A DNA stretch of 64,000 nt, from assembly GCF_003334335.1 (NCBI RefSeq), contig NZ_QOWQ01000030.1; one strand, given 5' to 3'. Source of the stretch: Escherichia coli. Lineage in GTDB: Bacteria; Pseudomonadota; Gammaproteobacteria; Enterobacterales; Enterobacteriaceae. Position numbers: made by a program. Shown one piece after another: positions 38,801 through 41,800 of this stretch. Every line of letters starts with the position of its first letter. The first letter of the stretch is position 1.

Positions 38801-41800
38801 GCTAAAGCGTAGCGGCTTTTTTGCTCGCAACTGACGGGAGTTACTCTGAAAATGTAGAAAAGGCTGCGTTTGCCTTTTTCTGTTTCTATAGAATCAAGTA
38901 GCCTACAGGGCGGCGATTACCAGGCTATGATCAAATCAGCAAATCAGGGCGTCTGGACATCAGTTGACGTGCTGTTACAATCGCCCACACCTAAACAGGC
39001 GGATACGGTATCGTTCCGTCATGGATGGCAAACTGCATAAGCCATAAAAAAACAGGGAGACATTTATGAAGCTTCGCCTGTCGGCGCTTGCTCTGGGAAC
39101 TACGCTTCTGGTGGGGTGTGCGAGTTCCGGTACAGATCAGCAAGGGCGTTCTGACCCGTTAGAAGGGTTCAACCGCACCATGTACAACTTCAACTTCAAT
39201 GTATTAGACCCGTATATTGTTCGACCGGTCGCTGTCGCCTGGCGTGATTATGTTCCGCAACCGGCGCGTAACGGTTTGAGCAACTTTACTGGCAACCTTG
39301 AAGAACCTGCGGTGATGGTTAACTACTTCTTGCAGGGCGACCCTTATCAGGGGATGGTCCACTTTACCCGCTTTTTCCTGAACACCATTTTGGGGATGGG
39401 CGGTTTTATTGATGTTGCAGGGATGGCGAACCCGAAACTGCAACGGACTGAACCTCACCGCTTCGGTAGTACGCTTGGTCATTATGGCGTGGGTTATGGG
39501 CCTTACGTTCAGTTACCGTTCTACGGTAGCTTCACGCTGCGTGATGACGGTGGTGATATGGCGGATGGTCTTTACCCGGTTCTTTCCTGGCTGACCTGGC
39601 CGATGTCTGTGGGTAAATGGACGCTTGAAGGGATCGAAACCCGCGCTCAGCTGCTGGATTCCGATGGTCTGCTGCGTCAGTCGTCCGATCCTTATATTAT
39701 GGTGCGCGAAGCGTACTTCCAGCGTCATGATTTCATCGCTAATGGCGGCGAACTCAAACCGCAGGAAAATCCGAACGCACAAGCGATTCAGGATGATTTA
39801 AAAGATATTGATTCTGAATAAGAAACAAATAAAAAAGGTGAGTCGCAAAACTCACCTTTTTTGTTGTTATCCCTCAATTACCACAAGTAAAAGGAGATAA
39901 ACCGACAATGACCTAGACGTAATTATGTAAAAATACTGATGTTCGTCACTGACTATTTCCGATATTCAGCTGTTGAAAAATCAAAAAACTGGAAAAATAA
40001 TTTTAAATATCATCAAAATTAACACCTGGCGCAGATGGTTGATTAATTTCATTTTGATATTCAGCCTGGCGATTTTGAAGCCTTTCTTCAATTTTACCTT
40101 CGAGATCCTTAAAATGCTTATATATTTTTTGAGAATGGCCAACGTTAATTTTGTTACCGACTAAAGTAGAAACTATTTCTTTTGGATGGTCGCATTTATA
40201 TTTTGCATCGTCCACTTGAAAATCATATCTTATTGCTCGACCATAACGTTTAAAAACGTCGTTTGGTTCTCTCAGTCTTTCCCCGTTGAGCTCGTTTACA
40301 ACCTGATGATCGGAACCAGTTGCAAATGATTCTGCCATGATAGCTTTACTGCTTTCAAACCACGCTGAAGCACTCCTGGCGTTTTCACTACAATATTGGG
40401 TGAGACTATCACCATTAATACGAATTCCTCTTTGAATGTGGTAGTCGTCCTGATCGTAGTAACCGAGAGATAAGTAATCATTTCCGTTTTTATTTTTAAT
40501 TACAATAGCGAGAGAGTCGCCTTTTTTATCTTTACCGTACCAGGTAAATAAGTCCGTTGGTTCGCTTTTCCCGCTCTCATCAAATTCCGTTACCGTATGT
40601 CTGAGTTTGTGTGATATCTTATCGAAGATAAAACCAGGATCTCCATCATATATTTCTTTTAATGCGCTGAAGATCATTTCCTTGTTATTGATATCATGAG
40701 TCTTCTCAACTATGTTGTCATTAATGATAGTACGGACGAGTTCTTTGTCTTTATAGTTCGCAGGTAATTCTATTGGTTCTTGGTTGTCGATACCAATAGT
40801 AATATGGTCTGTATCATTGGAGTCAATATCAATATAAGTAACTGAGGAATTATTAATATTAAATCTATAAGGATCGTCGTTTACTCGTATGGCGTTTTTT
40901 ATAAGCTCAAGTAGATGTTTAATACAGGTGCTTATTCCTTCCTTACCATTAAAAAGGTTTTTGAACTCTTGTACTAATCCATTAACTTCATCATTGTTAT
41001 TTTCATTGATGGATTCTGGGTAAGCTGCGCTGGTATTGTTGATTGAAATAGATGGTAGCATGATTTTATTCCATTTTGATTGATTTGTTACAAATATATA
41101 TTACCTAATGAAATAGACTATCAAAAAACGCTCATTTATTTAGAACCTATCTTTAATTTGAGTGTATGAGCGCACAATAGCCAGGGGGGGGGAGTATCCT
41201 GGAAATGCAGAAAAGTAAACTCTTTGAGAAGGACGAGCAGAACGCCTGAAAATATGCCTTTCCCTTCAGGTTTGTCTGTGGATACCGCTTATTGATTTGA
41301 AAGGGCAAGCTGCCAACAGGCTGTTTGCAAAACTCAGGAGGTAAGCAATGAGGACACTACTTTCGGTGAAGTGGGGGAGTTAAAGTCACCTGCTATGCAG
41401 GTGACTTTATCCAGGCGAACGCGTTATCAGAACGCGTAGTTAAAGTTAGTACCGAACAGCCAGGCTTTACCTTCAGACTCGAACTGGTATGGGCCTTCGT
41501 TAATTTTCACGCTCTGACCGTGCATATAAGAAACACCAACGTCGACTGAAGCATCTTTATTAAATGCGTAAGTCGTACCTGCACTCAGCCAGAAACGGTC
41601 CTGGTCCGGAATGGAGATAGAACGATTCTGTGCAGGAACTGGGCTGTCATCAAAGGCGATACCGGTACGGAAGGTCCAGTTATCATCGTAGTAATAAGTG
41701 GTACCCAACGCGATGCGGTAAGCATCTTTAAAGCCTTCATGTTTCTGGAACAGCGTGTCGCCACTGGTTGAGGTCGCTTTCAGCTGCTGGAACTGACTCC

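Follow-up and report, generated by a model that had tools for sequence, protein, structure and literature searches.

Mononucleotide repeats in the non-coding DNA of Escherichia coli are reportedly polymorphic, as described by Gur-Arie and colleagues in 2000 and by Diamant and colleagues in 2004. G runs are also subject to base substitution: in bacteria, E. coli and Salmonella included, a T that follows three or more G is a hotspot for T to G change, termed GnT (Cherry, bioRxiv 10.1101/2022.10.28.514265 / Genome Biol Evol 2023; Horton et al., Mol Biol Evol 2025, PMC12344412). Once a run reaches five G, the rate in Salmonella rises more than 400-fold. A T on the leading strand makes the effect 4- to 8-fold stronger, and each change leaves a run that is longer and more mutable than before (bioRxiv 10.1101/2022.10.28.514265; PMC12344412). 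Flanking bases shift the GnT rate by about 5-fold to more than 1000-fold. Directly 5' of the G run an A is most favourable, the general ordering at the 3' position puts C best and G second, and for G5 runs the most mutable 5' dinucleotides are CA and TA, as reported for motifs with a 3' C (PMC12344412).

Long tracts of C or G are also found at phase-variable promoters. In the fim C-stretch of Bordetella pertussis and the poly-C/G tracts of Neisseria opc and porA, the tract lies between an activator site or the −35 and the −10, where it sets promoter geometry (PMC1891110; PMC10710837). A further described class is formed by the MxiE/IpgC-activated, H-NS-silenced promoters of Shigella (ipaH, osp, icaR and icaT). 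Canonical MxiE boxes occupy −49 to −33, and fragments spanning −57 to +11 suffice for regulated promoter activity (PMC3299695). The yfdF gene, since renamed icaT, is AT-rich, and its product is secreted as a type III substrate by Shigella. H-NS silences the gene in Shigella as well as in E. coli, MC4100 hns included, and the silencing is also evident from DH5alpha with a dominant-negative H-NS (PMC9241512; PMC9769918). Its promoter needs MxiE, IpgC and the MxiE box, point mutations in the box abolish expression, and MG1655 expresses the gene only when MxiE and IpgC are supplied, K-12 being without both (PMC9241512; PMC9769918).

The DNA analysed here is a 64,000-nucleotide stretch of an E. coli K-12 contig (the window) in which the genes yfdC, mlaA, yfdF and fadL follow one another in this order. 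Upstream of yfdF it contains a run of nine G, C9 on the yfdF sense strand, in the context GCCA-GGGGGGGGG-AGTA (Table 1). The initial annotation had placed this run about 120 bp upstream of the yfdF start; the run is real, and the distance from the start of the tract to the ATG is 123 bp. In NZ_AKVX01000001.1 the C9 occupies 2,460,309-2,460,317. It is the only G/C homopolymer longer than six in the window, which holds five runs of length 6, none of 7 or 8, and one of 9. Dinucleotide-preserving shuffles yielded 0.28 G9 runs per window, with at least one in 19 of 100 shuffles. The G9 run is an outlier against the real window sequence, not against composition alone.

Table 1. Features of the mlaA-fadL region around the G tract, in window coordinates.
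Feature	Coordinates	Strand	Basis or remark
G9 polymorphic core	41184..41192	+	other sequences: G7-G12, GnTG, GnTTG, GGGAGGTTG or GGGTGGTTTG between the same flanks
CCAGG...CCTGG, two Dcm-type CCWGG sites bracketing the tract	41181..41202	.	5-bp inverted repeat
yfdF (icaT), 352 aa, low GC	40003..41061	-	ORF
fadL-yfdF spacer, 365 bp	41062..41426		100% identity to MG1655
Putative -10 hexamer TATATT (41098-41093) and transcription start (near 41085-41087)	41085..41098	-	inferred from the canonical box position
MxiE box TGAGCGTTTTTTGATAG	41118..41134	-	13/17 match to consensus GTATCGTTTTTTTANAG; experimentally validated
Perfect 12-bp hairpin AAAGTCACCTGC-TAT-GCAGGTGACTTT	41382..41408	-	just 3' of the fadL stop
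fadL, upstream neighbour on the same strand as yfdF	41427..42767	-	
yfdF island, 1.55 kb	39863..41417	.	comparison with yfdF-less E. coli

Homopolymers of eight or more are error-prone in long-read assemblies, and some K-12-derived assemblies carry G8 or G10, so that the true number of G in K-12 could differ from nine, an artefact that the initial annotation had allowed for. We searched 5,426 complete E. coli genomes with an exact 59-nt query made up of 36 nt of left flank, the G9 and 14 nt of right flank, and 987 genomes matched at ≥99% identity. In about 85 of them the alignment ends after six G, at sites interrupted by an insertion sequence (IS); their subtraction leaves about 900 genomes with an exact G9. 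The same allele was found in 23 of the 106 metagenome contigs that carry the flanks, contigs of short-read style, and with identical flanks in several MG1655 assemblies. Given its presence in about 900 complete genomes and 23/106 contigs, we regard the K-12 length as genuine and the artefact as refuted for the K-12 allele; that the true number is other than nine is highly improbable. Other strains differ from K-12 consistently, with G10 in three of three independent assemblies of ATCC 8739 and G8 in four of four assemblies of the E. coli W lineage. Because these repeat assemblies agree, the tract looks stable on a laboratory time scale. K-12 derivatives are mostly G9, with G8 in the assemblies of DH5alpha (CP026085), MG1655 (CP025268), NEB strains and TUM24769, and G10 in WF5-5-T1/T2. 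Long reads may have miscounted the homopolymer in some of these ±1 calls, and slippage would then look more frequent than it is.

To describe natural variation at the site we took the tract from 22 genomes and 106 metagenome contigs (128 independent sequences), with the limits of each allele set by the invariant anchors GCGCACAATAGCCA and AGTATCCTGGAAAT. Eighteen alleles occur between the anchors in these sequences, one of them, G11, coming from an exact-variant search of complete genomes. There are six pure runs (G7, G8, G9, G10, G11 and G12), four alleles with a single T (G6TG, G7TG, G8TG and G9TG), four with a double T (G5TTG, G6TTG, G7TTG and G8TTG), and the remaining GGGAGGTTG, GGGTGGTTTG, GGGTGGGTG and AG7. 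An A is found only in GGGAGGTTG and AG7, one in each. In all other alleles the differences are confined to T/G exchanges and to how many G or T there are, as the GnT to Gn+1 change plus slippage predicts.

Counting by identity band, which is valid for exact variants only and from which 85-90 IS-interrupted partial matches were subtracted, gave approximately 902 complete genomes with G9, 345 with G8TG, 288 with G8, 135 with G10 and 35 with G11; G12 occurs in at least one genome. These short-query counts do not cover 771 genomes with a SNP in the left flank, such as O157, and the allele of O157:H7 is G5TTG. Judged by the spread of the G9-query matches, roughly 400 genomes each carry G6TTG and GGGTGGTTTG, and about 300 carry GGGAGGTTG. 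The locus is absent from about 1,100-1,130 of the complete genomes and present in roughly 4,300. The interrupted alleles GGGTGGTTTG, GGGAGGTTG and G5TTG account for 32 of the 106 metagenome contigs and for about 700 genomes by spread classes. Across the complete genomes and the 106 contigs, a long uninterrupted tract is not conserved among lineages with yfdF. Tract length is not invariant across the genomes: pure runs extend from G7 to G12 and interrupted forms exist beside them.

The flanks vary by two-allele SNPs only, at about 43 variable sites per 360 bp, and the tract is the most variable spot of the fadL-yfdF spacer. Three haplotypes that are identical over 300 bp on either side each carry several alleles: G9 (n = 19), G8 (n = 5) and G10 (n = 1) on the first; G8TG (n = 5), G10 (n = 3) and G9 (n = 1) on the second; and G9TG (n = 3), G8TG (n = 1) and G8 (n = 1) on the third. 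G6TTG and G9 share a common 100-bp flank haplotype. Since several alleles sit on identical flank haplotypes, the tract changes faster than the 600 bp that surround it. The initial suspicion of a tract prone to slipped-strand mispairing is borne out by the natural pure-G alleles G7 to G12 and by the occurrence of G8, G9 and G10 on flanks identical for 300 bp each side. The most divergent haplotypes (88-95% spacer identity) are all interrupted, with GGGTGGTTTG or GGGAGGTTG, and pure runs are confined to K-12-like and B1-like haplotypes.

We consider it likely, with a probability of about 0.8, that the tract is a selectively neutral, hypermutable homopolymer in non-coding DNA that was built by the GnT hotspot together with slippage, neutrality being an assumption of this reading. 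The ancestral state was probably an interrupted G-rich motif, CCA-GGGTGGTTTG-AG. A T that follows the G run would be converted to G by the hotspot, the run would become longer and the next T more mutable, and once the run is long, slipped-strand mispairing would add or remove single G residues. The outcome would be a series from GnTTG through GnTG to Gn, with n drifting between 5 and 12, and the G9 of K-12 would be an end-product of the series with no T left.

Several properties of the locus are those of a GnT hotspot. Three or more G directly followed by T are present in the GGGT-type, G5-8TTG and G6-9TG alleles, and relatives that differ by a run-extending T to G change exist on one 300-bp haplotype (G8TG, n = 5, and G10, n = 3). 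The changes from G8TG to G10 and from G6TTG to G9 conserve length, so that T to G changes alone suffice, and both pairs occur on common flank haplotypes. Some pairs could also have arisen by loss of the T and subsequent slippage. The GC skew of the window's + strand is +0.029 (z = 5.1) and its GT excess is +1176, which places the G run and its GnT motif on the leading strand; this call is consistent with the orientation of the window, which is the reverse complement of MG1655 at 2.46 Mb. The flanks are favourable as well, with CA as the 5' dinucleotide and, 3' of the T, a G in GnTG alleles or a T in GnTTG alleles. We infer the order of the steps from haplotype divergence, which here takes the place of an outgroup. 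An outgroup was sought with a 20-mer of the invariant MxiE-box region against 100,044 species representatives. The scan returned two chance matches only, both in Firmicutes MAGs, and the locus is absent elsewhere among these representatives.

The tract could instead be a phase-variable switch, in which slippage of the C-tract alters yfdF/icaT transcription, for instance by changing how an upstream H-NS or activator site is phased with respect to the MxiE box. In other bacteria, SSRs upstream of the core can act on expression by re-phasing protein sites, and distal upstream repeats modulate promoters in some pathogens, as at Neisseria nadA. Here too there is a long G/C homopolymer upstream of a gene for a secreted, host-directed protein, polymorphic from G7 to G12 among strains and on identical haplotypes, and the run is long enough to slip (about seven or more), with G9 in K-12 and G7-G12 elsewhere. 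Its position does not fit, however. We located the MxiE box by eye, since it has four mismatches and a search permitting up to three found none. The box has every one of the tested positions (G6, T10, T12 and A16) and is invariant in 16 of 16 aligned sequences, those of the window and of 15 other genomes; the putative −10, TATATT, lies 19 bp downstream of it. A simple promoter scan gave weak matches only, no more than in shuffles. With the transcription start placed from the box, the 5'UTR would be about 24 nt long and the C9 would lie at about −98 to −106.

Counted from the 5' edge of the MxiE box, the tract is 50 bp further upstream, and it belongs neither to the 17-bp box nor to the −57 to +11 region. 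On the predicted start, it occupies none of the places in which a phase-variable tract is looked for, namely the ORF, the −35/−10 spacer or the spacer between activator and core. The presumption of the initial annotation that the run is part of the yfdF promoter or leader is therefore not upheld, as the run falls outside both the minimal promoter and the short 5'UTR. Since it is 50 bp beyond the MxiE box and outside the minimal promoter, its length cannot alter core promoter geometry, and no promoter-internal spacing depends on it. Length-dependent expression is also unlikely in K-12 because yfdF is silenced by H-NS there and needs MxiE and IpgC (PMC9769918; PMC9241512). Further points against a switch are the many lineages with the poorly slippable alleles GGGTGGTTTG, GGGAGGTTG and G5TTG, the agreement between assemblies of the same strain, and the IS that interrupts the tract in about 85 genomes. 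The regulatory reading is weakened because long runs are not kept across lineages, because E. coli does not express the gene unless MxiE/IpgC are present, and because IS elements have inserted in the tract; we judge a switch to be quite unlikely.

In yfdF-less E. coli such as ST131, strain 83972 and strain FAH, mlaA and fadL are separated by a 61-bp spacer with one bidirectional terminator. These 61 bp stand in place of 39863-41417, so that the island includes essentially the whole 365-bp spacer. The hairpin behind fadL, which is likely the fadL terminator, is carried by the island. YfdF gave no match in Pfam and NCBIfam, and a search of the phage collection found no relatives; among the plasmids its only matches are five E. 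coli records, three of which measure 4.8-4.9 Mb and are chromosome-sized. GC content drops from about 46-50% to 30-35% close to the tract, as might be expected if the G run were a horizontal-transfer junction scar, a remnant of integration or tailing at the edge of the low-GC yfdF island. The actual edge is elsewhere: the tract lies 226 bp inside the fadL-side end of the island, the GC-normal DNA at 41193-41417 is island DNA as well, and the deepest haplotypes have no homopolymer at this site. The comparison with the empty sites of ST131 and strain FAH rules this origin out, and we give it next to no credence.

Other elements were looked for at the tract. An Rfam scan of 40000-42800 at E ≤ 1 returned no match, and shuffled sequences fold as well as the CCAGG/CCTGG hairpin does (z = −0.2). 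A 51-aa ORF at 41153-41308 (- strand) spans the tract; a coding role through this ORF was rejected, as it could not be conserved given the length variants of 8-12 nt.

In about 85 genomes the tract is split by ISEc20, a 1,449-bp IS110-like element, in the arrangement ...GCCAGGGGGG, IS, GGGGAGTATCC. Two further, independent ISEc20 sites have exactly six G at the left junction and G-rich right flanks; one is downstream of hrpB in O145:H28 and the other is common to SF-173 and BH100N. In K-12 the empty hrpB site reads GGCCGGGGTGAGGGC. Judging from these junction sequences, ISEc20 may have G runs as its target, or the G residues may belong to the ends of the element.

The tract might also be a functional element with a different role. 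On fadL read-through RNA it might act as a C-rich rut site for Rho, its GC-rich sequence might stop H-NS from spreading, or ISEc20 might prefer it as a landing site. The C9 is indeed on the strand of fadL read-through, the tract is at the transition from AT-rich to GC-normal DNA, and ISEc20 is found in it and next to six G at two other sites. Against such a role, neither the length nor the purity of the run is conserved across lineages, there is neither an RNA family match nor significant structure, and targeting by an IS would be a consequence of the run and not a host function. We hold such an element to be improbable, if somewhat less so than the switch. We would assign similarly little weight as to the switch to a more specific proposal, that C-tract length acts as a distal, graded rheostat on icaT/yfdF expression or on H-NS silencing in Shigella, EIEC or hns-compromised E. 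coli, through the phasing or extent of an upstream complex, or else that the growing G run offers a landing site to ISEc20 as a bridge-RNA-type IS110 element.

A neutral run built by hotspot and slippage has practical consequences. The site can be expected to turn up repeatedly as a "mutation" when K-12 is resequenced, and assemblies can be expected to disagree there by ±1; neither should be taken for regulatory variation without evidence. The site also offers a natural example, within a single species, of how an interrupted motif is turned into a long G/C homopolymer by the GnT hotspot and slippage, in a genome where G/C runs of this length are otherwise rare (one longer than six in the 64 kb of the window). 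An effect of the tract on icaT expression would make it an unusual distal SSR rheostat for the gene of a type III secretion substrate; nothing we found points there.

Set beside the described systems, the neighbouring yfdF promoter belongs to the MxiE/IpgC-activated, H-NS-silenced class, whereas the G tract is outside the architecture of that class, no other member of which has been described with such a tract. With the Bordetella fim and Neisseria opc and porA tracts it shares a similar length, a place upstream of a host-interaction gene and variation among isolates (PMC1891110; PMC10710837). In contrast to those tracts, it lies beyond the activator box, and its long pure runs are not conserved; the regulatory reading thus fails on position, the main mark of a phase-variable promoter. 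Like the mononucleotide repeats of E. coli non-coding DNA, it is an intergenic run of no known function that varies among strains by slippage, but here substitution contributes too, and the build-up from an interrupted motif is visible. The tract is a further example of known mutational behaviour. Its closest counterparts are the GnT hotspots (Cherry, bioRxiv 10.1101/2022.10.28.514265 / Genome Biol Evol 2023; Horton et al., Mol Biol Evol 2025, PMC12344412), which it resembles in having three or more G before a T on the leading strand after a 5' CA, and in having relatives that differ by a run-lengthening T to G change, here G8TG and G10 on one haplotype. The rates for those hotspots were taken genome-wide or in an engineered ntrB, whereas the yfdF tract presents a natural allele series at one non-coding site.

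The G tract in the fadL-yfdF spacer carries an insertion of the IS110-like element ISEc20 in ~85 complete genomes, in the arrangement G6|IS|G4. At two further independent ISEc20 sites the left junction is again exactly six G, and the right flanks are G-rich; the hrpB site of K-12, which is without ISEc20, reads GGCCGGGGTGAGGGC. The junction sequences suggest that ISEc20 targets G runs or, alternatively, that terminal G residues are part of the element itself. IS1 has also entered the locus, in the fadL-yfdF spacer of strain FORC_042 and in yfdF of strain MSI001, which has the longest tract seen (G12). 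Disruption is tolerated by the silent yfdF locus.

Comparison with strains lacking yfdF delimits a yfdF island. The gene is absent in ~1,100 genomes, including ST131, 83972 and FAH, and in yfdF-less strains the mlaA-fadL spacer is just 61 bp and contains a single bidirectional terminator. A perfect 12-bp hairpin immediately after the fadL stop is supplied by the island.

Features of the yfdF locus (window coordinates unless a comparison sequence, L, is named)
Feature	Position	Strand	Size	Remark
ORF MRTLLSVKWGS with its Shine-Dalgarno sequence	41336-41383	+	11 codons	ATG 6 nt after perfect Shine-Dalgarno AGGAGG
Dcm-type CCWGG sites CCAGG, CCTGG	41181-41185; 41198-41202			either side of tract
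12-bp hairpin	41382-41408
IS1, FORC_042 spacer; MSI001 yfdF	L015:3277-3974; L018:1-296
ISEc20	L021 and L025:2291-3739; L134, L135, L136, L137; tract at 41184-41192		1,449 bp	IS110-like
yfdF island	39863-41417		1.55 kb
mlaA-fadL spacer, yfdF-less	L023 and L024:1023-1083
yfdF, K-12	40003-41061	-	352 aa
YfdF variant	L014:1301-2500		399 aa

YfdF itself varies in length, with orthologues annotated in other phylogroups at 343-423 aa (from CDS length). When the K-12 protein was aligned to one 399-aa variant, it lacked a 47-aa internal segment similar to the sequence beside it, and the difference therefore appears to be a change in the copy number of an internal repeat. Pfam and NCBIfam returned no match to YfdF.

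The CCAGG and CCTGG sites together form a 5-bp inverted repeat around the tract; the hairpin predicted from it has no stability advantage over shuffled controls. The MRTLLSVKWGS ORF, antisense to the 3' end of fadL and terminating within the hairpin region, is probably fortuitous, because several common SNPs are located in it.

Tract length also differs among assemblies of K-12 derivatives (genome-search matches H212, H214 and H244-H246; L016, L017): G8 in the DH5alpha, one MG1655, NEB strain and TUM24769 assemblies, G10 in those of WF5-5-T1/T2 and G9 in the reference. Either the tract did slip in the laboratory, or the differences are homopolymer errors from long reads; the G tract is a useful site for checking assembly polishing.
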